Shown: positions 20,266-60,333, numbered from the stretch's first letter. The stretch is DNA of 64,000 nucleotides from a virus (IMGVR_UViG_3300031759_000002); one strand, 5' to 3'. The notes: generated by a model from the letters alone, not told the origin. Numbers and translations are program-made.

Positions 20266-20583
20266 ATGGCAAAAGAAAAAAATATAAATACAAAATCAAA
20301 ACATGTAGAAGTAGAGTCTAATGTTAATAGAGATGATTTAGCGTTGTTGCTACAAACCGCAATGAATAAGGCATCTAAAGATGGAACCAAAGTAGCATAT
20401 TTCGTAGATGAAGATGATAATCCATCCGAAATAAAAGAATGGGTATCAACCGGTTCAACTTTATTAGATTTGGCAATTTCTAATAGAGCACACGGAGGTC
20501 TACCTGTAGGTAGAGTGACCGAATTATCAGGATTAGAAGGCTGTGTTACGGAAGATACTTTAATTGAAGTTATTATTGAATAA
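20266..20583 (+). CDS. uvsX: UvsX/RecA recombinase N-fragment + 13-aa IntN (20542-20580)
   Basis: WVSTGSTLLDLAIS...GGLPVGRVTELSGLEG, then CVTEDTLIEVIIE*. Confidence 0.92.
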   Translation: MAKEKNINTKSKHVEVESNVNRDDLALLLQTAMNKASKDGTKVAYFVDEDDNPSEIKEWVSTGSTLLDLAISNRAHGGLPVGRVTELSGLEGCVTEDTLIEVIIE

Positions 20584-20630
20584 TTTTTATGTAGCCTGAT
20601 ATTTATATTATATTACCAATATTAAATATT

Positions 20631-21716
20631 ATGGCTAAAAAAGTAACAGATGCACAGACAATAGACACGATTATATCATCTATACACGATGGTTTAAGCG
20701 AAACGGAAATCTTCCAATTAAAAATTGGAAGAAAGCCTATTAGGAGAATTGCAAATGAATTTAATTTAGTTGATAAATTAAAATATAATAACATTAAATA
20801 TAAATCAAATCAACTTAGTGAATATGCGCTTGCTAAAAGAAATATAAAACTTATAGAATTAGATAAAATATATGGAATGTTAGTATTGGAATCCATTAAT
20901 AATGGAGGAATATTACAAGATGTTAAAAACATAATGAAAAATATTTCGCATAAGCAAGTTTTATATTTTTTAAAATATAAAAATTTAGATATACAGAGAA
21001 AAGAGAATTCTAAAAATTATATTAATATACAGTCTAAGATAAACGGAAGAAAAGCAATACCAATTACACGGGGAGTAGAATTAAAACCAATTACCTCAAA
21101 AATCATAAAGAGATTTGAGGAATTAAAACATAAGTTAAAATATAAACAGCAAGTTTATAATACATTGAAGAATGAATTTGGATTTGGAAGTGTAAAATGC
21201 AAGCAATTATGTGAAAAATACGGATATCCTAAAAATAATCCACAAACCGGACGGTTAAATCCGATGTATGGTAAATCGCCCGGAAAAAATGCAGGAATTG
21301 GAGTTAAGTGTTGGATATTAAACGATGGAATAAAATATTTTTGTAGATCTTCATTAGAATTGCGAATAATGTGTCATTTGATTTTTAACAATATTACATT
21401 CCAAATATCAAAACATAGAATAAAATATAAAGATGATATGGGAATTGGTCGAACATACTGTCCTGATATAGTAATAGGAAATTCGATTTATGAAATAAAA
21501 CCATATAATATGTTGCCAATTAGATTAAATGTGTTAAAATCAGAGGCATTAAAAGAATATTGTTCCAGATTTAATTTAAAATATGGAGGGTATTTGACGG
21601 AGAATGATATTGACATATCAAAATATGATATTAATTTTATATCGACTCTTATAAATTCTGGTAAAATAATAATAGACAATAAAAATTTAGAAAAATTAAA
21701 AAGAAATATTATATGA
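20631..21716 (+). CDS. free-standing endonuclease (TnsA-like PD-(D/E)xK) inside the split uvsX
   Basis: NPMYGK, CRSSLELR, RTYCPD...YEIKP; own ATATTTATA at 20599-20607. Confidence 0.78.
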   Translation: MAKKVTDAQTIDTIISSIHDGLSETEIFQLKIGRKPIRRIANEFNLVDKLKYNNIKYKSNQLSEYALAKRNIKLIELDKIYGMLVLESINNGGILQDVKNIMKNISHKQVLYFLKYKNLDIQRKENSKNYINIQSKINGRKAIPITRGVELKPITSKIIKRFEELKHKLKYKQQVYNTLKNEFGFGSVKCKQLCEKYGYPKNNPQTGRLNPMYGKSPGKNAGIGVKCWILNDGIKYFCRSSLELRIMCHLIFNNITFQISKHRIKYKDDMGIGRTYCPDIVIGNSIYEIKPYNMLPIRLNVLKSEALKEYCSRFNLKYGGYLTENDIDISKYDINFISTLINSGKIIIDNKNLEKLKRNII

Positions 21717-22990
21717 ATAAAAAAATAATAACTGTAGGAGAAGTAGATTCTCTCCTTAAAGAAGGAAAAACCATAAAAGTAAAAACATTGAATGGTGAAT
21801 ATACAAAAATAACCAGATTTGTTAATAAAGGTATATTGGATACATATTTAGTAACATTAGATAATGGAAAAACTATAAAAGTGAGTCGAGAACATAAGTT
21901 TTTTACAAATTCTGGATGGGTAGAATGTAAAGATATAATCCCTAATAAACATAGTATTTTATGTGATGATGAAACTTATAGTATAGTATTATCAGTTGCT
22001 TTAATTGGAAAATATAAAATTGTAGATATTACGGTCGAACATCCAGAACATTGTTATTTTGGAAATGGGATGCTAAATCATAACACCGGTAAATCTTTAA
22101 TGTGCGCTCATATTATTGCAGAAACAAGTAAACTTGGTGGATATAGTGTATTTTTTGATTCTGAGTTTGCAGTTGATAGAAAGTTTTGGACTGCGCTTGG
22201 AGTAAATGTTAAAAATACAAATTATGTTCCATTTACAACATTGGAAGATTTATTTACACATATAGAAACTTGTATAGGTGCTTTTAGAAAAGCAAATAAA
22301 GATAAATTATTAACTATTTTTATTGATTCAGTAGCACAAGCTACTATCGAAAAAGAACTTGAAGCAGAACATGGGATTGATGGATATAATACAGGAAAAT
22401 CCCTAATCTTAGGAAAGGCATTCCGAAAAATAACCGGTCTTATTGCTAAACAAAGAATCCTGATTGTATTTACTAATCAATTAAGATTTAATATGAATGC
22501 AGGTCCATTCGGAGACAAATGGACTACTCCCGGTGGAAAATCTTTAAGTTATGCGTGTTCTACCAGAGTAAGAATGGGAACCATTGGAAAATTGAAGAAA
22601 AATGATGAAGTAATTGGAGTAAAATGTACTTGTCAAGTTATTAAGAGTAGAATGGGACCGGGAGCACGAGGAGCACAATTTGAAATCCATTATGATTCCG
22701 GTATCCAAGATTTGGCAAGTTGGCTTAATTTCTCAAAAGAGCGTGGAATTATAACTGGAACTGCTGCTAAATATACATGGAAAAGAGCAAATGGAGAATC
22801 ATTGGAGTTTAATACTTCTAAGTTTGTAGAACTTATGAACTCTGATAAAGATCTTAAAGAAGAGTTTTATCAAGTGATTTGTAATGATTATATTATGAAT
22901 TATAGAGACCCTAATTCTAAAATTGTGGAAGACATTGAAGAAGTATCAGAGGAAGTTCCTCCTATTACTGAATCAAAATCAGAAGAATAA
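21713..22990 (+). CDS. uvsX: 124-aa IntC (21713-22084) + UvsX/RecA C-fragment
   Basis: Intein block B VSREH, block F VDITV, block G HN/T; then TGKS (Walker A), FIDSV (Walker B), FTNQLR, TTPGGK. Confidence 0.92.
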   Translation: MNKKIITVGEVDSLLKEGKTIKVKTLNGEYTKITRFVNKGILDTYLVTLDNGKTIKVSREHKFFTNSGWVECKDIIPNKHSILCDDETYSIVLSVALIGKYKIVDITVEHPEHCYFGNGMLNHNTGKSLMCAHIIAETSKLGGYSVFFDSEFAVDRKFWTALGVNVKNTNYVPFTTLEDLFTHIETCIGAFRKANKDKLLTIFIDSVAQATIEKELEAEHGIDGYNTGKSLILGKAFRKITGLIAKQRILIVFTNQLRFNMNAGPFGDKWTTPGGKSLSYACSTRVRMGTIGKLKKNDEVIGVKCTCQVIKSRMGPGARGAQFEIHYDSGIQDLASWLNFSKERGIITGTAAKYTWKRANGESLEFNTSKFVELMNSDKDLKEEFYQVICNDYIMNYRDPNSKIVEDIEEVSEEVPPITESKSEE

Positions 22991-26069: not shown

Positions 26070-27419
26070 ATGAATGAAGAATATAATAAAGTAGATACGT
26101 TAGCATCCCGACAATATGAAAAAGAGTTTCAAGCAAAAGTAATTTCAGTTCTAATTTCAGATAGGGCTTTTTTGGAGAGAATATATGATATATTAACTCC
26201 TGATTTTTTTGATACCGACCAACAAAAATGGATAGTTTCCAAAATCATAGACCACTGGAAACAGTATAAAGATACTCCTACTATGATGATTTTGGGACAA
26301 GAATGTAATTTAATTTCTGATAGTACCCTTCAAATGGCGGTAAAATCCCAGTTATTATCCGCTTTTAAAAATGCATCTGCTACCGATTTAACGTATGTTA
26401 AGGATAAGTTTTTAGAGTTTTGTAAGCATCAAAAATTAAAATCGGCAATTGCAGATTCATTAGAACTTCTTAAAAATCAAAAGTTTGATACTATTAAATT
26501 AAAGTTAGATGAAGCTCTTAAAGCTGGAATGGATAGAGATATTGGGGAAAATTATTTTGAGAGTTTTGAAACTAGGTCGTCTAAAGATACTCGATACACA
26601 ATAAAAACAAATCAACCAATTTTAGATAAATTGATGGATGGCGGATTGGGAAAGGGAGAATTGGGTATTATATGTGGAAATCCCGGTGGATGTAAAAGCT
26701 GGACATTGGTTAATTTTGGAGCGGAAGCACTTAAACAAGGAAAAAATGTTCTTCATTTTACCATGGAATTAAGTGCTGATTATACTGGTCACAGATATGA
26801 TTCTTATTTATCTGGCATTCCATTTCAAGAACGTCAAGCAAATAAGGCTAAAATAAAAGTAGCGTTGGATGCTACGAAGGCTAATGGGGCTGGCACTTTA
26901 TACATTAAATATTTTCCATTAAAAACAGCTACGGCTGATACTTTAAAAGCATTTACCGAACATCTTCAAATTGTCACCGGTATTCATATTGATATGTGGG
27001 TAGTTGACTATGTGGATTTGTTATTATCTTCGACTGCACCCAAAGGTTCTAAATCATATGAAGATGCCGGGGCAAAAAGCGAAGAGGTCAGGTCTGTATT
27101 AGGGTCACTCCAAATAGCCGGTTGGTCGGTCTCTCAGGCTAATCGGTGTTTGTCTTTACAAACTATTGTGAACGAAGAACTTAAAGGTAATATTAAAATC
27201 AAAAATATAATAGTTGGAGATAAGATATTAACACATAACGGATATAGAAAAGTATCTTATATATATCCTGTTAAAAAACAACCAGTGTATAGAATTACAT
27301 TGAAAAGTGGTAAAATTATAGAATGTTCTGAAAATCATAGGTTTCCAACACAATATGAAAAACTAAAAAGTATTATAAGTGGCTTATCTATAGGAGATAA
27401 ATTATTTACTAAAAAATGA
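26070..27419 (+). CDS. dnaB: replicative helicase (gp41/DnaB) N-fragment + 90-aa IntN (27147-27416)
   Basis: GGLGKGEL..GNPGGCKS, FTMEL, VVDYVDLL, SQANR, then CLSLQT...CSENH...KK*. Confidence 0.93.
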   Translation: MNEEYNKVDTLASRQYEKEFQAKVISVLISDRAFLERIYDILTPDFFDTDQQKWIVSKIIDHWKQYKDTPTMMILGQECNLISDSTLQMAVKSQLLSAFKNASATDLTYVKDKFLEFCKHQKLKSAIADSLELLKNQKFDTIKLKLDEALKAGMDRDIGENYFESFETRSSKDTRYTIKTNQPILDKLMDGGLGKGELGIICGNPGGCKSWTLVNFGAEALKQGKNVLHFTMELSADYTGHRYDSYLSGIPFQERQANKAKIKVALDATKANGAGTLYIKYFPLKTATADTLKAFTEHLQIVTGIHIDMWVVDYVDLLLSSTAPKGSKSYEDAGAKSEEVRSVLGSLQIAGWSVSQANRCLSLQTIVNEELKGNIKIKNIIVGDKILTHNGYRKVSYIYPVKKQPVYRITLKSGKIIECSENHRFPTQYEKLKSIISGLSIGDKLFTKK

Positions 27420-27452
27420 TGTTTTTGTGGTTACGGTCCATATTTATATAAT

Positions 27453-28511
27453 ATGAAAGAATTATATTACAAAAATAGAGAACATTTTTTATCACAAAAA
27501 TTTGCGGCTCCATTTAAGGCAATTTTAACTAATCACTCTTTATTGGAAATTGATAGTATAATAAAAATATTTAATAAAAATTATATTAGAAATATAAAAA
27601 AAGAAATGATAGTTAAATTATTAAAATATAATGTTGATGGAAGTTGGGTAAAGAGGTTGACCGAATCGAAAAAATTCGGAAAAGATGGATTTTCATTAGC
27701 ATCATTACAACATAGATATGGTGATTTAATCGGCAAACAAATATTTGAGGAGCAAAATAAAAAAATTACAGCACGAAATCAAAATTATACAGTGGAACAA
27801 AAAGAAATAATATCTAAAAGAAAAATATCTAATTTAGGATTGGATGGATATATTAAAAAATATGGAAAAGAAGAGGGTAAAATAAAATGGGAGAAATATT
27901 TAAAAAATTGGAAACTTGGAATTGAGAAACGAAAGCAAAAAGGAAAATGGAAAAATGGAAGGACGCTGCCGGAATTTCAAAGTAAATGGGGAGTAGAAGA
28001 TGGATATAAACGTTGGAGGGCATCATATGATAAAAGAAATCATACATTGTCACTAATAGGATTTATTGAAAGGTTTGGTTCGATTGAAGGGGTTGAGAAA
28101 TATTATAACCATATAGAAAAAATGGTTTCTAATTGTAGAGGTAAAAGTAATCCATACAGCAAAATATCACAAGAGTTGTTTAATAATATAACATCTAAAT
28201 TAGTATCTAAACAAAAAGAATTGGTAAAGTATTTTACCTATAATAAAGAACAATCATTTTTTGCCAATGGAAAATATGGATTAAACTTAATTTATGTTGA
28301 TTTTAAATGTGGGAATGCTATAATAGAGTTTGATGGTAGTTATTGGCATTCCTTCCCATCCATCATAGAAAAAGATAAGCGAAGAGATTTATTTTTAATA
28401 TCATTAGGATATAAAATATTAAGAATTCCAGAAGAAGAATATCTTAAAAATAAAGAAAAAGTAATTAAAAAATGTATTAGATTTGTAAATAAATATTATG
28501 AAAGAACATAA
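27453..28511 (+). CDS. free-standing Vsr-like homing endonuclease inside the split dnaB
   Basis: Repeated YIKKYG.EEG units, VDFKCGNAIIEFDGSYWH, ILRIPE; own ATATTTATA at 27440-27448. Confidence 0.85.
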   Translation: MKELYYKNREHFLSQKFAAPFKAILTNHSLLEIDSIIKIFNKNYIRNIKKEMIVKLLKYNVDGSWVKRLTESKKFGKDGFSLASLQHRYGDLIGKQIFEEQNKKITARNQNYTVEQKEIISKRKISNLGLDGYIKKYGKEEGKIKWEKYLKNWKLGIEKRKQKGKWKNGRTLPEFQSKWGVEDGYKRWRASYDKRNHTLSLIGFIERFGSIEGVEKYYNHIEKMVSNCRGKSNPYSKISQELFNNITSKLVSKQKELVKYFTYNKEQSFFANGKYGLNLIYVDFKCGNAIIEFDGSYWHSFPSIIEKDKRRDLFLISLGYKILRIPEEEYLKNKEKVIKKCIRFVNKYYERT

Positions 28512-28959
28512 ATTAAACACAGAAGAATTTAACCTTGATGAAATTGTTAGTATTGAGTGTATAGGAGATCAAGAAACTATTGATATTACAGTAGATGATA
28601 CTCATATGTTTTTTGCTAATGATATTTATACGCATAATAGTGCCGCTCAGAATGATATTATTGAAGGAGATGACATGGCGGAATCATATAAGAAGTTAAT
28701 GACTTCTGATTTTGTAGCTTCTCAAGCAAGAACAATGGATAATAAACTTACTAATACTGCTAAGTTCCATATTATTAAAAATCGATTTGGTCCCGATGGT
28801 AGTAGTTATATTTGTGATTTGGATGCAGCTACTGGGAGACTTGGAATGTATGAGATGGCTTCTATCGAAGGTATGGAACTTATTAATAAACTCAAAGGTC
28901 AAGAAGAAGCTCAAAAAGATATAATCCGTAAAAAATGGAATAAATCCAAAGGAGAATAA
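28498..28959 (+). CDS. dnaB: 47-aa IntC (28498-28638) + DnaB C-fragment
   Basis: TIDITVDDTHMFFANDIYTHN/S, then ESYKKLMTSDF, KNRFGPDG. Confidence 0.93.
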   Translation: MKEHKLNTEEFNLDEIVSIECIGDQETIDITVDDTHMFFANDIYTHNSAAQNDIIEGDDMAESYKKLMTSDFVASQARTMDNKLTNTAKFHIIKNRFGPDGSSYICDLDAATGRLGMYEMASIEGMELINKLKGQEEAQKDIIRKKWNKSKGE

Positions 28960-29018: not shown

Positions 29019-30302
29019 ATGAATAAGATACCAAATATGTTAGATGAGATGGGAAACTTCACCTTTACTACAAAATATGCAAAATATGAAGAAAAGAAAA
29101 AGAGAAGAGAAACATGGGAAGAAACTGTATCCAGAGTAGAAAAAATGCATTTAAAAAAATACAGTTTTTTAAATGAAAAAGATAAATTGGAAATTGTAAG
29201 AGCATTTGATTTTGTACGTGAACGGAAAGTTACTCCCTCTATGCGTTCTATGCAATTTGGAGGAAAGGCTATAGAAGCTCATAACTGTAGAATGTTTAAT
29301 TGCGGAGTAAGACATATAGATTCTATTCGTGCTTTTGCGGAGTCTTTTTATGCATTATTATGTGGGACTGGTATTGGATTTGGATTAACTAAACGATTTC
29401 TAAATCGTCTTCCTGCATTGGTAAATGCCAACGATAAAACTGGAACTATTATTACATATGTAGTACAAGATTCGATTGAAGGATGGTCCGATAGTATCGA
29501 AGCATTGTTAAATTGTTATTTTAAAAATACAGCATATTCCGGAAGAAAAATTGTATTTGATTATAGTAAAATAAGACCAAAAGGAGCAAAACTTAAAACG
29601 GGTGGTGGTAAAGCCCCCGGTTATAAAGGACTTAAAAATTGTCATAAAAAAGTAAAAGAATTATTAGATGAAATTATTGAAAAGGACCACCAAGTACGAC
29701 TTAAGCCTATAAATGCATATGATATACTTATGCATTGTGCCGATGCTGTTTTAAGTGGAGGAATTAGAAGAAGTGCATGTAGCGTGATATTCGATGCAGA
29801 CGATGATGAAATGATGAATGCCAAAACTGGTAACTGGTTTGATAAAAATCCACAGAGAGCCAGAAGTAATAATTCAGCCATCATTGTCCGTGGAAGAACT
29901 ACATTCAAAGAATTTAAATTGTTAATAGAAAAAACAAAACAATTTGGAGAACCTGGATTTCTCTATGTCGTCGATGAACGTCAATTATTAAACCCTTGTG
30001 TAACAGGAGATACATTGGTATCTACTACTAAAGGAGATATTAGAATAGACGAATTGGTAGAACGATACAACAACGGGGAAAAGTTTGATGCAATATCATA
30101 TAATATAGAAACTCGTTCTTTAGAAAATAATGAAATAACAATGGCTATGAAAACCCGTGAAAATGCAGAAATATTAGAAATCCAAGGAGAAAATGGAGAA
30201 GTTCTGAAATTAACTCCGGACCATAAGGTATTTGTGGAGGGACGTGGATGGATAGAGGCAAAGGATTTGACAGAGACTGATATTTTATTAAAAATAAATT
30301 GA
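29019..30302 (+). CDS. nrdJ: class II (B12) ribonucleotide reductase part 1 + 101-aa IntN-1 (29997-30299)
   Basis: KYA...RRETWEETVSR, PSMRSMQFGG, FNC, GGIRRSA, GEPG, LLNP, then CVTGDT...LTPDH...IN*. Confidence 0.93.
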   Translation: MNKIPNMLDEMGNFTFTTKYAKYEEKKKRRETWEETVSRVEKMHLKKYSFLNEKDKLEIVRAFDFVRERKVTPSMRSMQFGGKAIEAHNCRMFNCGVRHIDSIRAFAESFYALLCGTGIGFGLTKRFLNRLPALVNANDKTGTIITYVVQDSIEGWSDSIEALLNCYFKNTAYSGRKIVFDYSKIRPKGAKLKTGGGKAPGYKGLKNCHKKVKELLDEIIEKDHQVRLKPINAYDILMHCADAVLSGGIRRSACSVIFDADDDEMMNAKTGNWFDKNPQRARSNNSAIIVRGRTTFKEFKLLIEKTKQFGEPGFLYVVDERQLLNPCVTGDTLVSTTKGDIRIDELVERYNNGEKFDAISYNIETRSLENNEITMAMKTRENAEILEIQGENGEVLKLTPDHKVFVEGRGWIEAKDLTETDILLKIN

Positions 30303-30432
30303 TTTTATAAATCCCATATAATATTTACGATAGAGGAAAACAGGATATATTTACGGAATATCCTATAATTACAATTAGAAATATAAAAGATTATTTAACA
30401 ACAGGAAGTAGTTTAAGAAAAGAATTAAAATT

Positions 30433-31281
30433 ATGGAAACAAAACAGAATAAAAAAATTACCAGAATTAAAATAAAAAAAATAACGGTTCGTCCAAATGA
30501 AGATGTATATGATATATCTGTAAAGAATAATCATAATTTTTTTGCTAATAATATTTTAATACATAACTGCTTCGAAATTTCATTTATTCCAGTAACCGAT
30601 GATGGGCGTTGTGGATTCCAAATGTGTAATTTAACTTCCATAAATGGAGCAAAAATAACTTCCAGTGATAAGTTTAAAGACGCTACTTGGGCGGCTACTT
30701 TAATAGGAACTTTACAAGCTGGATATACTTCATTTCCATATTTAGGACATACTTCCGAGGAATTGTCAAATAACGAAGCATTATTAGGAGTTTCTATAAC
30801 TGGAATGATGGATAATCCTGATATATTATTCAATCCAGAGTTTCAGAAACAATCTGCCAAAGTAGCAGTCGAAACTAATAAAATATGGGCTAAGAAAATA
30901 GGCATAAATCAAGCGGCAAGAATTACATGTATAAAACCTGAAGGTTGTGTTGTTCCCGAGACTATTATAAAAACTTCTATCGGAGATAAAACTTTATCGG
31001 AATTGTTTGAGATAAATGGATATAAATTAGAAGATTATGAAAATTTAAATGAAAAACAATTTTTACCTGTAACTTCTAAGATTATGGTTAAAGATGAGAA
31101 TAATGATTGGCAATATATTACAAAGTTATATATAAATGGAGTATCCGATACTATAGATGTGGAAATGGATGATGGAACTATTGTTACAACTACTCCAAAT
31201 CATAAATTTTTAGTTAAAGGTCGGGGATATGTAGAAGCGAGAAATCTAGAAAAAAACGATGATATTTTATCATTTGACTGA
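30433..31281 (+). CDS. nrdJ: 45-aa IntC-1 + NrdJ part 2 (126 aa) + 111-aa IntN-2 (30946-31278)
   Basis: YDISV..HNFFANNILIHN/CFE; CNLTSIN, TLQAGYT, LLGVSITG, TCIKPEG; then CVVPET...TTPNH. Confidence 0.93.
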   Translation: METKQNKKITRIKIKKITVRPNEDVYDISVKNNHNFFANNILIHNCFEISFIPVTDDGRCGFQMCNLTSINGAKITSSDKFKDATWAATLIGTLQAGYTSFPYLGHTSEELSNNEALLGVSITGMMDNPDILFNPEFQKQSAKVAVETNKIWAKKIGINQAARITCIKPEGCVVPETIIKTSIGDKTLSELFEINGYKLEDYENLNEKQFLPVTSKIMVKDENNDWQYITKLYINGVSDTIDVEMDDGTIVTTTPNHKFLVKGRGYVEARNLEKNDDILSFD

Positions 31282-31300
31282 TATTTATATGTATTAAGTC

Positions 31301-32299
31301 ATGTGTAATATATGGTTTAATACACGTTTAATGAAAACTAAAAACACAAAATTATTAAGATTAAAGAGGTTTTTAATTCATAAATATGGACTGATTATTG
31401 GAACTAAGCGATTTAAGACATATTCATGCACTCATTCTGAACGAATGTATATATTTAAATTTGGAAAATGTGACGGTATTAAAAAATATAAAGAATATAC
31501 TGAAAAGTTAAAACCAAGAGGAACGTTGCCATATTATATTAAAAAATACGGAGAAGTCGATGGAACTAAAAAATATAAAGAAAAAAATAGAAAATTATCG
31601 GTGTCGGAAGAATCTTTAAGGTTGAATGGATATTCTGAAGATGATATAAAAAATATAAAGAATATACATTCTAAAAAATCATCTTTAAATATGGAAAATT
31701 GTGTTCGTATATATGGAGCCGATGCAAAATTTAAAATTGAAGAATGGAAGCGAAATCGAGTATGTGTTAGGAAAGTCGATGATTGGGTTTTAAAAAAAGG
31801 AAAGTCATTGATTGAGGCAACGGAATTAGTTAAAAAATATCAAAGTAGAGATTTGAATTTTTTTATTTGTAAATATGGAGATACGGATGGAAAAATAAAA
31901 TGGCGTGAATATATAGATAGTAAAATGAATTGTTTTTTTGGAGAGTCGAAGTCACAATTACAATTTTCAAAATTATTATATATGTCGTTATCGGATGATT
32001 TGAAGTATTTGTTTAGAGGATGTCCAATTACTAATTCGGAAGTTATTGTATTTGAGGACAATCCATATAATTTAAAATATTGTGTGCCAGATGTTGTAAT
32101 ATCCAATATCATAATAGAATTTGATGGGGAATATTGGCATAACATGGAACATATAAAAGAGCGTGATATTGTCAAAGAGTTTTTACTACAGTCGAAAAAA
32201 TATGTCATATTACGAGTAAAAGAAAAACAATTTAAAAAGAATATAACCGAAACGATAGAACAAGTTATAGATCAGATAAATACAAATATAAAATTATGA
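31301..32299 (+). CDS. free-standing Vsr-like homing endonuclease inside the second nrdJ split
   Basis: YIKKYGEVDG repeats, VPD..IIEFDGEYWH, ILRVKE; ATATTTATA at 31281-31289. Confidence 0.85.
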   Translation: MCNIWFNTRLMKTKNTKLLRLKRFLIHKYGLIIGTKRFKTYSCTHSERMYIFKFGKCDGIKKYKEYTEKLKPRGTLPYYIKKYGEVDGTKKYKEKNRKLSVSEESLRLNGYSEDDIKNIKNIHSKKSSLNMENCVRIYGADAKFKIEEWKRNRVCVRKVDDWVLKKGKSLIEATELVKKYQSRDLNFFICKYGDTDGKIKWREYIDSKMNCFFGESKSQLQFSKLLYMSLSDDLKYLFRGCPITNSEVIVFEDNPYNLKYCVPDVVISNIIIEFDGEYWHNMEHIKERDIVKEFLLQSKKYVILRVKEKQFKKNITETIEQVIDQINTNIKL

Positions 32300-33003
32300 A
32301 AATAAAATCAATAAAAACTGGAATGCGTAAATTAACAGTAGATATAGAAGTTGATAAAACGCATACTTATCAATTAAAAAATGGAACAGTAACACATAAT
32401 ACTAATAGCATTGTTTTATCAGCCGCATCCGGAATACATCCACATCATTCTAGGCGCTATCTTAGAAGAATACAAGTTAATAAAGAAGATAATGTATATA
32501 AATATTTTAAATTATTTAATGAACATGCTTGTGAAGAAAGTGTTTGGAGCGAAAATAAAACGGATGATGTTATTACATTTCCAATAGAAGTTCCGGAAAA
32601 TGTAAAAATTAAAGCTGATTTATCGGCAATAGAACATTTAAGACTTATTAAATTAACCCAAGAAAATTGGGTTAATTCTGGAACTACAAGTGTAAATACT
32701 AAGCCATTAAACCACAGTGTTAGTTGTACGGTTATGGTAAAAGATGAAGAGTGGGATGATGTTACCAAGTTTTTATTTGATAATCAAAAGGATTTTACCG
32801 CAGTTTCTCTATTGCCTTTTACGGGTGATAAAATTTACAAACAGCCTCCTATGGAAGCCGTTATAACAGATGAAGAAAATGCAAAGTTTGACGAGTTGTT
32901 AAAAAATTGGTCTATGGTCGATTATAAAAAACTAGAAGAAGACGACGACGAGACACAACATACTGCCGAAGCAAGCTGTGCTAATGGAAAATGTATAATT
33001 TAA
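32296..33003 (+). CDS. nrdJ: 35-aa IntC-2 (32296-32400) + NrdJ part 3
   Basis: VDIEVDKTHTYQL..VTHN/T, then SAASGIHP, YLRRIQ, HSVSCTV, QPPMEAV, C-terminal CANGKC. Confidence 0.93.
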   Translation: MKIKSIKTGMRKLTVDIEVDKTHTYQLKNGTVTHNTNSIVLSAASGIHPHHSRRYLRRIQVNKEDNVYKYFKLFNEHACEESVWSENKTDDVITFPIEVPENVKIKADLSAIEHLRLIKLTQENWVNSGTTSVNTKPLNHSVSCTVMVKDEEWDDVTKFLFDNQKDFTAVSLLPFTGDKIYKQPPMEAVITDEENAKFDELLKNWSMVDYKKLEEDDDETQHTAEASCANGKCII

Positions 33004-58330: not shown

Positions 58331-58837
58331 ATGATTGAACTTAAAAAGACAGATGTAAATGCGGTTGTTCCAACTAGAGGAACATCATATGCCGCAGGAT
58401 ATGACTTATATAGTATTGAAAGTTATGAACTCCAGCCATTGGAACGAAAACTGTTTAAAACTGGTATAAATATAGCAATTCCAACGGGATTATTTGGAAG
58501 AATATCTCCCCGCAGTGGATTATCTTTTAAAAATGGGATTGATGTGTTAGGTGGCACGATAGATTGTTTTTCGGGGGATTGTACTATTAAGACTGAAAAG
58601 GGTCAAAAATTTATAGAAGAATTGAGAATAAATGATATTGTATATTCAGTTAATGAAAATTTAGAATTGGAGCGAGATTTTGTATCTGCTATAGTATCTT
58701 TAGGAGATAAAGAATTATTAGCAATAGAAACTGATGATGATTATATAGAAATAACACCGGGTACTCAAGTATATACCGAAACTGGAATAAAACGTGCCGA
58801 CGAACTAAAATTAGGTGAAAAAATATTACACTTTTAA
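58331..58837 (+). CDS. dut: dUTPase N-fragment + 90-aa IntN (58565-58834)
   Basis: AAGYDL, KTG, RISPRSG, GGTID, then CFSGDC...ITPGT...GEKILHF*. Confidence 0.92.
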   Translation: MIELKKTDVNAVVPTRGTSYAAGYDLYSIESYELQPLERKLFKTGINIAIPTGLFGRISPRSGLSFKNGIDVLGGTIDCFSGDCTIKTEKGQKFIEELRINDIVYSVNENLELERDFVSAIVSLGDKELLAIETDDDYIEITPGTQVYTETGIKRADELKLGEKILHF

Positions 58838-58842
58838 TGAAT

Positions 58843-58891
58843 TTTCCCTTTGTAATCGCTATTTATACATAGATAATGATTACTAAGGAAA
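58843..58891 (+). promoter_or_regulatory. hairpin burying the endonuclease SD, late motif in the loop
   Basis: TTTCCCTTTGTAATC/GATTACTAAGGAAA, 13 bp with one bulge and one mismatch; CTATTTATA at 58859-58867. Confidence 0.6.
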
Positions 58892-58895
58892 TATT

Positions 58896-59798
58896 ATGAT
58901 AAAATGTGAAATATGCGGACATACGACAAATAGAAGATTAATAGACCATATTATTAAAACTCATAAATTATCAGTTGATGTTTATAAAAAAACATATGGT
59001 CCAGTCGTTTCAGATGAAGAACAGAAAAGAATAAGTAAAATGATGGAGGAAAATTGGAAAAATCCATTATATAGAAATAAAACTAATGCTTCTCGAAAGA
59101 CAAAATGGACTACAGAGTTAAAAGAACGACAGAGTAAAATAATTAAAAAAACATATGAAGAAGGTCATAAAAATTGGAATATTGGTCTAACTAAAGAAAT
59201 TGACGACCGAGTTAGGTTAATTGGAGAGAAAAATAAAAAACACTTAACTGGAAGGACGAAAGAAATATATCCATATTTACAAAAGCATTCGGAGTTTATG
59301 AAGCAAAATTATAATAAATATTGGGGAGAAGAAGGGGGGTGTACTAAATATTTTAGAGACGAAGATAATTTCGAAATATGGAGGAATAAAATATCCAAAA
59401 CATTGGCGGATAAATGTAAATCTGGAGAATTGGATTTTGTATCTAATCATTTTAAAACTGGATATTATAAAAATATTTTTTATGCAAGTGGATTGGAGTT
59501 AGAGGCTATGACAATATTCGACTCTAATGAAAATATAAAAACTTGGCGAAGAAACTTCGATGTGATAGAATATATTGATTGTGAAGGAAAAATGCGAAGA
59601 TATTTACCCGATTTTGAGTTGATATTAAATACAGGAAGACGAATAGTAATTGAGATGAAGGGGTTTCCAGATAAAAATTTAATAGAAAAAACATTAGCGG
59701 CTAAATTAAAATATAACAATGACTTTTATGTATGTTATTCCAAAACAGAATTAAAAACTATAATAAATGAAATTATCAACAATAAAATCAATAAGTAA
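58896..59798 (+). CDS. free-standing TnsA-like endonuclease inside the split dut
   Basis: CEIC...HI...H, ASGLELE, RRYLPDF...IEMKG. Confidence 0.78.
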   Translation: MIKCEICGHTTNRRLIDHIIKTHKLSVDVYKKTYGPVVSDEEQKRISKMMEENWKNPLYRNKTNASRKTKWTTELKERQSKIIKKTYEEGHKNWNIGLTKEIDDRVRLIGEKNKKHLTGRTKEIYPYLQKHSEFMKQNYNKYWGEEGGCTKYFRDEDNFEIWRNKISKTLADKCKSGELDFVSNHFKTGYYKNIFYASGLELEAMTIFDSNENIKTWRRNFDVIEYIDCEGKMRRYLPDFELILNTGRRIVIEMKGFPDKNLIEKTLAAKLKYNNDFYVCYSKTELKTIINEIINNKINK

Positions 59799-60333
59799 AG
59801 TTAAAAAAAAGACATATGATATAACAGTAGAGAATAATCATAATTTTTTTTGTAATGATTTTTTAATACATAACTGCGATTATCGTGGAGAAATAAAAGT
59901 TATTCTAATAAATCTTGGAAAAGAGCCATATAAAATTAATATTGGAGATAAAATGGCTCAAATTATATTTTCGGCATATACTGTTCACGAGTTTAAATTA
60001 GTCGATGAATTATCACAGACCGAACGAGCAGAAAAAGGATTTGGAAGTACTGATATTAAACCAGAACCAATTCCATCAGTTAAGTCGATTGATAAATTAG
60101 ATGCGGCAATTGATTTATCGAAACAATATGATAAAAATATAATATCAATAACCAAAGAATCTATTGGAGCAGTTGACCTTAATGTTAAGGGATTCGTAAC
60201 ACATAATAATACATTACCAATTCCTCCCCGAACCAATTCTGATATTATCGAAGAGTATAAAAAACACGGTGGAAATATTTCTCATATTAAACCATATGAG
60301 GAACAAATACGAGAAAAGATGAAAAGTTTATGA
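59767..60333 (+). CDS. dut: 36-aa IntC (59767-59874) + dUTPase C-fragment
   Basis: YDITVENNHNFFCNDFLIHN/C, then DYRGEIKVIL, GDKMAQ, RAEKGFGST. Confidence 0.92.
   Translation: MKLSTIKSISKVKKKTYDITVENNHNFFCNDFLIHNCDYRGEIKVILINLGKEPYKINIGDKMAQIIFSAYTVHEFKLVDELSQTERAEKGFGSTDIKPEPIPSVKSIDKLDAAIDLSKQYDKNIISITKESIGAVDLNVKGFVTHNNTLPIPPRTNSDIIEEYKKHGGNISHIKPYEEQIREKMKSL

Follow-up and report, generated by a model that had tools for sequence, protein, structure and literature searches.

The dUTPase gene of a large uncultured phage is broken into two pieces, whose products are probably joined again by trans-splicing of a split intein. The gene is located in a window of 64,000 nucleotides (the whole stretch of DNA that was analyzed), which forms a portion of the 353,772-bp virus record IMGVR_UViG_3300031759_000002, a 354-kb uncultured T4-like phage. 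ORF reading and translation revealed three open reading frames (ORFs) on the plus strand at 58331-60333. The first contains the beginning of a dUTPase followed by the N-terminal half of an intein (IntN), the second is a free-standing endonuclease gene, and the third contains the C-terminal half of the intein (IntC) followed by the remainder of the dUTPase. We interpret this locus as a functional "fractured" dUTPase gene, with a probability of about 0.8. The intein carries Thr where the most conserved histidine of inteins, His B:10, is expected, and the same replacement prevails in a lineage of related split inteins. A first-pass annotation made from the sequence alone had proposed a split intein lacking this histidine; the strings that it quoted (GGTID/CFSGDC...LHF, the endonuclease ORF and MKLS...IHN/CDYRGE) proved correct to the base. 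The features of the locus are as follows.

58331-58837, plus strand: N-half ORF, with its ATG at 58331, reading ...GGTID / CFSGDC...ILHF
58331..58564, plus strand: N-extein, dUTPase residues 1-78 (PF00692 positions 3-74, 54.5 bits; dUTPases of the PDB at E ~1e-19)
58565..58837, plus strand: IntN, 90 amino acids and stop, with Cys1 at 58565-58567 and weak Hint and Intein_splicing matches in Pfam
58847..58888, plus strand: hairpin in the 58-nt spacer (minimum free energy -14.1 kcal/mol, z = -4.1)
58896..59798, plus strand: free-standing putative homing endonuclease, 300 amino acids (alignment of 4 homologs, AlphaFold (AF2) model, VIA-align)
59767-60333, plus strand: C-half ORF, with its ATG at 59767, reading MKLS...LIHN / CDYRGE
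59767..59874, plus strand: IntC, 36 amino acids, with blocks F and G intact (Pfam Intein_splicing positions 122-155, 24.6 bits)
59875..60054, plus strand: C-extein core, with Cys+1 at 59875-59877, DYRGE, motif IV GDKMAQ and motif V GFGSTD (PF00692 positions 68-128, 52 bits)
60055..60333, plus strand: C-terminal extension of the dUTPase, 92 amino acids past motif V (comparison with relatives)

Tandem in-frame stops (TAA TGA, 58835-58840) terminate the N-half ORF. The start of the C-half ORF overlaps the 3' end of the endonuclease gene by 32 nt, and the first 10 IntC codons lie within this overlap. The C-half protein is on record, with identical sequence, from 16 contigs; the locus is therefore not an assembly artefact.

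Both outer ORFs exceed the PF00692 cut-off of 22 bits and match complementary ranges of the profile, and are therefore pieces of one dUTPase. They are the only PF00692 matches in the virus record. The five motifs of trimeric dUTPases can be read across the two halves: AAGYDL (I), PRSG (II), GTID/DYRGE (III), GDKMAQ (IV) and GFGSTD (V), with motifs I and II and the first part of motif III, up to the Asp of GTID, in the N-extein. D78, the residue preceding the intein (position -1), is aligned to D102 of human dUTPase, which is the motif III Asp in "VID". By this alignment the insertion site lies directly behind the catalytic Asp of motif III, the motif to which the first-pass annotation had assigned it. 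The 92-residue C-terminal extension, for which no family match was found in Pfam, is kept in the related locus L003 and in the intein-free dUTPase P0157, and is short or missing in loci L007 and L008.

The residues that carry out splicing are present in the two intein halves: Cys1, Thr B:7, block F YDITVENNHNFF, block G LIHN and Cys+1. Block B reads I-T-P-G-T; its T-P-G-T occupies 58754-58765, with T64 as B:7 (58754-58756) and T67 as B:10 (58763-58765), so that Thr stands where His B:10 is expected. The assignment comes from an hmmalign alignment of 155 IntN sequences, in which ITPGT is placed against the T-x-x-H of other inteins, and upholds the replacement of the block-B histidine that had been proposed. 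An alignment with the DnaB mini-intein 6fre pairs block B with T-x-x-H in the same way, at a non-significant E-value; in a search of PDB sequences with IntN alone, which gave no significant match, 6fre was the best intein row (E 1.3). Among five close alleles, 33 of the 36 IntC positions are invariant. The Asp and His of block F, the terminal HN and Cys+1 are kept in all five of these and in four further C-halves.

The two halves are also predicted to associate. Charge complementarity between the halves is usual in split inteins, and the net charges here are -10 for IntN and +3 for IntC. The predicted IntN-IntC complex reached an ipSAE of 0.83 (best control 0.00); among solved complexes this mark is reached by 58 of 80, and among mismatched pairs by 2 of 110. 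The runs shared at least 93% of contacts, partner pLDDT (predicted local distance difference test) was at least 78, and all 36 IntC residues were in the interface. Complexes of split inteins are already solved in the PDB; the prediction therefore reports likeness to a split intein, not binding.

The absence of His B:10 is not confined to the copy in the window. E-I-T-P-G-T is likewise found in all of four close alleles, which have 52-91% identity over the N-half. A profile of IntN was searched against 1.84 billion representative proteins (representatives of 50%-identity clusters) and matched 257 proteins at E <= 0.001. The best matches are proteins of 104-251 amino acids that end in an IntN, with the N-extein terminating in G-(T/L/V)-(I/V)-D; Pfam dUTPase was matched by 28 of the 35 best. 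The dUTPase-site set thus collected contains 39 IntN, namely 38 library representatives and the window copy. Cys1 is present in all 39 and Thr B:7 in 34, and the -1 residue at this site is always the catalytic Asp. At B:10, however, 31 have Thr, three Ser, three Lys, one Gln and only one His, whereas of the 96 inteins from other hosts in the same hit list, 90 have His at this position. From these alignments, Thr B:10 appears as the rule across dUTPase-site split inteins and not as a quirk of one copy. The view that His-to-Thr variants are rare exceptions thus agrees with the literature and fails within this lineage. No compensating His or Lys is conserved in IntN; 20 of the 39 lack His altogether and no column of conserved His exists, and a relocated histidine therefore cannot do the work of B:10.

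In a quick tree built from 79 columns with block B excluded, the Thr/Ser inteins, including that of the window, form one group. The Lys/Gln/His inteins fall into a separate group, which this weak tree does not resolve as sister of the first. The topology suggests that the histidine was lost at least twice at the dUTPase site, once in a clade with Thr or Ser and once in a clade with Lys or Gln. The second dUTPase-site group (P0072, P0077, P0080, P0099, P0107, P0088 and P0123) has the junction D/CVP.GT... and a block B of the form I-P-x-x-K, in which Lys occupies the His position and Pro that of Thr B:7; one member has Gln and one retains His. Contiguous dUTPase inteins were found neither among the best 150 matches of the IntN profile search nor among longer proteins, where only a retroelement polyprotein with a dUTPase domain was matched. 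These searches hint that the dUTPase-site lineage may always be split.

Taken as a functional fractured gene, the locus would be translated into two precursors, dUTPase(1-78) followed by the acidic 90-residue IntN, and the basic 36-residue IntC followed by Cys and dUTPase(80-230). IntN and IntC would associate into a HINT domain, and splicing, as we infer it, would proceed along the class 1 pathway: an N-S acyl shift at Cys1, transesterification onto Cys+1, cyclization of the terminal Asn and finally an S-N shift. The product would be a dUTPase of 230 amino acids with motif III reading GTID-C-DYRGE, which would then form the trimer. Because His B:10 is replaced by Thr or Ser, or by Lys in the second clade, the first step of splicing would need another kind of activation. 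It is conceivable, as a tentative proposal that we hold to be less probable than its opposite, that the site behind the catalytic Asp makes His B:10 dispensable or even harmful, and that the lineage represents a distinct mechanistic subclass of class 1 inteins with a histidine-independent N-S acyl shift. Candidate aids to such a shift include the carboxylate at -1, or the Thr or Lys at B:10.

The arrangement might also be explained by an intein that splices no more and serves as a non-covalent clamp, holding the dUTPase fragments together as a two-chain enzyme. The loss of His B:10 from nearly the whole lineage and the strong predicted IntN-IntC complex are compatible with this, and a precedent exists in the split NrdA of Aeromonas phage Aeh1, whose fragments, according to the accessible part of the report, come together without splicing, through domains that stem from a mobile element (Crona et al. 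2011, PMC3045599). Nucleophiles would be superfluous in a clamp, yet Cys1, the terminal Asn, the penultimate His, the Asp and His of block F and Cys+1 are all invariant. Moreover, the intein-free allele has Glu where Cys+1 stands, and the Cys is retained wherever the intein is found. An unspliced HINT domain of 126 residues would in addition have to be lodged directly behind the catalytic Asp, within the hairpin that motif III forms in a tightly packed trimer. Invariant nucleophiles and terminal Asn, together with Cys+1 in place of Glu, are hard to explain in a clamp or in a wreck, and we consider a clamp unlikely.

The functional reading is joined by signs of mobility in the alleles of the locus. 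The intein-free protein P0157 is an uninterrupted dUTPase of 230 amino acids, equal to the 78 and 152 residues of the two exteins, in which motif III reads GTID-E-DYRGE with Glu in the place of Cys+1. This intein-free allele was found on at least 24 contigs of syntenic phages (for example L020:3001-3693 and L021:3001-3693). In locus L003 the split intein stands alone, with two intact halves but no endonuclease. The window, L004, L007 and L008 carry the endonuclease in the same layout. Empty site, split intein alone and split intein with nuclease are thus all present, and with them all stages of a homing cycle. Compared with the window, L003 is without 58864-59746 (883 bp; L003:3296-3345), which is nearly the whole endonuclease gene. 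The difference begins within the conserved CTATTTAT of the hairpin and stops short of the IntC start codon; the 20 nt just ahead of that codon are kept, probably because they contain the translation start region of IntC.

Identity between L003 and the intein-free L020 was scored in 30-nt windows from L003:2500. The two are the same up to L003:2919, about 100 nt ahead of the insertion site, with 99.7% identity across the upstream glycosyltransferase gene. Over the last 60 nt of the N-extein, identity then falls to about 78%; the C-extein has about 83%, and high values return from about L003:3817. The two loci differ only in this tract around the insertion site, a pattern that bears the signature of a co-conversion (recombination) tract around a cassette that was recently gained or lost. 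When L007 is compared with the other loci, its intein has 70% amino acid identity and its N-extein only 27-31%; an intein more conserved than the N-extein is expected of a mobile element. The endonuclease would make, or would once have made, the cassette mobile among related phages.

These alleles also bear on the proposal of the first-pass annotation that the intein may act as a slow or conditional switch, in which splicing without His B:10 would be slow or would depend on redox state, pH or metal and would time dUTPase activity during infection. In other inteins, mutants at His B:10 work slowly or not at all (PMC6333167), and the three nucleophile-type residues are all Cys and could in principle be redox-sensitive. 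No trigger is in evidence, however, and the features of the locus are those typical of a selfish mobile cassette. Near-isogenic phages commonly carry intein-free alleles, which means that the phage can do without a dUTPase switch. The conservation argues for function and is silent on kinetics, and we find a switch improbable.

Selection on the locus was estimated as dN/dS, the ratio of nonsynonymous to synonymous substitution rates, by the Nei-Gojobori method. The values were 0.09-0.20 for IntN, 0.03-0.18 for IntC, 0.04-0.09 for the exteins (closest pairs) and 0.18-0.31 for the endonuclease. Neither values near 1 nor frequent stops or frameshifts were seen in the alleles compared. That the locus is decaying, with the dUTPase broken by a mobile element and heading for loss while the host dUTPase suffices, would fit the missing His B:10 and the dispensability of dUTPase in many phages, but is very improbable given that the window and four other loci have their ORFs intact, that motifs I-V are complete, that dN/dS is far under 1 in the exteins and in both intein halves, that at least 38 diverged library representatives (50% identity) retain the same architecture, and that L003, without its endonuclease, retains both intact halves.

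Several points weigh against the interpretation of the locus as a functional fractured gene. The dN/dS values are rough because dS is near saturation in most pairs, and the conservation of the intein could stem partly from recent spread and not from selection. IntN (16.5 bits) and IntC (24.6 bits) both fall under the curated PF14890 cut-off of 35.8 bits, as is expected where each piece is only half a domain. The complex prediction may owe its score to memory of split inteins that are already solved. Many inteins cannot do without His B:10 (PMC6333167), and of the only two natural inteins lacking it that were known in 2014, one was a pseudogene (PMC4031507). Finally, splicing itself is a prediction from sequence and structural models.

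Between the two dUTPase halves, the endonuclease has a C2H2-like zinc finger at its N-terminus (C4, C7, H18 and H23), which is shared by four homologs. Its nuclease domain is a C-terminal PD-(D/E)xK domain at residues ~185-300 (59448-59795), in which E201/E203, P238-D239 and E253-x-K255 are invariant among the four. The AlphaFold model is confident at residues 1-50 and ~190-295 only, and the helical middle has low confidence. VIA-align placed the C-terminal domain closest to VRR-NUC (Z 9.3, root-mean-square deviation (rmsd) 3.2, 89 aligned residues) and TnsA (Z 8.4, rmsd 2.7, 99 aligned), followed by the EDxHD homing endonuclease I-Bth0305I (Z 6.4, rmsd 3.0, 82 aligned) and Vsr (Z 5.5, rmsd 3.2, 91 aligned). 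A Vsr-like fold is thus shared at lower Z, but the sequence motif is the canonical PD...ExK and not EFDG.YWH. Pfam RE_endonuc matched at E 0.0065, which is under its cut-off. A Foldseek search of the PDB returned no row at E <= 0.001 (E-values 0.02), and a profile search of the PDB gave no match. The PHROGs label "head closure" on the nuclease domain was set aside as an annotation artefact. We read this protein, from its motifs and the model, as a putative homing endonuclease composed of a zinc finger and a canonical PD-(D/E)xK nuclease.

The hairpin ahead of the endonuclease pairs with the Shine-Dalgarno region of this gene and contains the conserved CTATTTAT, an invariant motif that spans the 5' arm and the loop. 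It is also found in L004 (L004:3977-4021), L007 and L008, and consists of 17 pairs, two of which show compensatory changes. By analogy with other phage homing endonucleases, this suggests translational control; in concealing the ribosome-binding site, the hairpin probably holds down endonuclease synthesis. CTATTTAT is possibly a promoter or another control element that travels with the nuclease gene.

The layout of the locus is known. A split intein accompanied by a free-standing endonuclease is the "fractured gene" organization described by Dassa, London, Stoddard, Schueler-Furman and Pietrokovski (2009, PMC2677866) for gp41-1, gp41-8, NrdJ-1, IMPDH-1, NrdA-2, DnaE, ligase and terminase. The dUTPase locus agrees with those genes in the order of N-extein with IntN, endonuclease gene and IntC with C-extein, in a break that falls between blocks B and F, where an endonuclease is usually inserted, in the overlap of the endonuclease and IntC frames, in the hairpin 5' of the endonuclease ORF, and in the phage setting with an enzyme of nucleotide metabolism as host. 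It differs in that dUTPase is outside their eight enzyme types and that His B:10 is missing. Their nucleases are GIY-YIG or Vsr-like, whereas that of the dUTPase locus is canonical PD-(D/E)xK and resembles TnsA and VRR-NUC.

Known inteins without the block-B histidine offer partial comparisons. His B:10 has been described as the most conserved intein residue, and the only functional natural exception known in 2014 was Tko CDC21-1, which uses Lys58 (PMC4031507). This intein and its orthologs, reported by Tori et al. (2012) according to PMC4031507 and PMC6333167, are likewise class 1 inteins with Cys1 that splice without His B:10. Tko CDC21-1 is, however, a contiguous intein of an archaeal helicase, and its compensating Lys58 lies outside the conserved blocks; its -1 residue is Leu, where the dUTPase site has Asp. 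The dUTPase-site IntN have no conserved Lys or His counterpart of Lys58. In Ssp DnaB M86 H73A, the extein residue at -1 can functionally make up for the absent block-B His during the N-S acyl shift (Friedel et al. 2018, PMC6333167). That intein is engineered, and compensation comes from a bulky Leu, His or Phe at -1; Asp is not among the peptides reported in the accessible part of that paper.

No paper naming dUTPase as an intein host was found in the searchable literature, with subscription journals outside coverage, and the earlier description of dUTPase as an unusual host agrees with this. Within the same coverage, no report was found of this insertion site, of a canonical PD-(D/E)xK nuclease in a fractured gene, or of a whole lineage of apparently functional split inteins without the histidine. 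The architecture is known, and the large dUTPase-site lineage without His B:10, the host, the site and the nuclease type were not found described. Many homologs exist, as the 39 dUTPase-site IntN from the protein library make clear, and none was found described. A blastn search with the locus gave no match among 50,697 phage records. A pattern scan of viral contigs for the N-half gave no relatives, in a collection that may exclude the window's own genome and records close to it.

The lineage constitutes a large, diverse and apparently selected family of small natural split inteins that lack His B:10 and occupy one site beside a catalytic Asp. It may serve as a natural experiment on how the first splicing step is activated, and may supply protein engineering with new orthogonal split inteins. 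The allele series at this locus (empty, split intein, split intein with nuclease) allows spread and nuclease loss to be studied, with a recombination tract visible in near-isogenic phages.

The virus record encodes a T4-type major capsid protein, Gp23, and was thus read as a large T4-like phage. The capsid family of nucleocytoplasmic large DNA viruses (NCLDV) had no match in the genome, in a search that matched none of its control genomes either. The window contains four split inteins besides that of the dUTPase, one in a UvsX-like recombinase, one in a gp41-type helicase and two in NrdJ:

20266-22990: UvsX/RecA-like gene with an atypically split intein, whose N fragment has about 13 intein residues (CVTEDTLIEVIIE)
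26070-28959: gp41-type helicase with a split intein, whose halves flank a Vsr-like (EFDGSYWH) nuclease gene
29019-33003: NrdJ in three pieces with two split inteins; a Vsr-like nuclease gene lies at one junction and none at the other

All four share the fractured layout with the dUTPase locus. Unlike the dUTPase intein, they retain His B:10 (EH, NH, DH and NH), as was seen in the gp41 and both NrdJ inteins and in the long C fragment of the UvsX-like intein, which has a block B (SREH) and ends HN/T. Two are accompanied by Vsr-like (EFDG.YWH) nucleases, and one junction has no nuclease. The nuclease of the UvsX locus, a protein of 361 amino acids encoded at 20631-21716 between the fragments, has the core S.LEL...PDI...EIK, which weakly resembles that of the dUTPase-locus nuclease (E 0.07).

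More intein matches were found in the genome beyond the window. An open frame of 1424 amino acids contains two intein splicing domain matches (G000:C1:297618-298979), one of them full length at 65 bits and so a contiguous intein; the genome thus holds both contiguous and split kinds.

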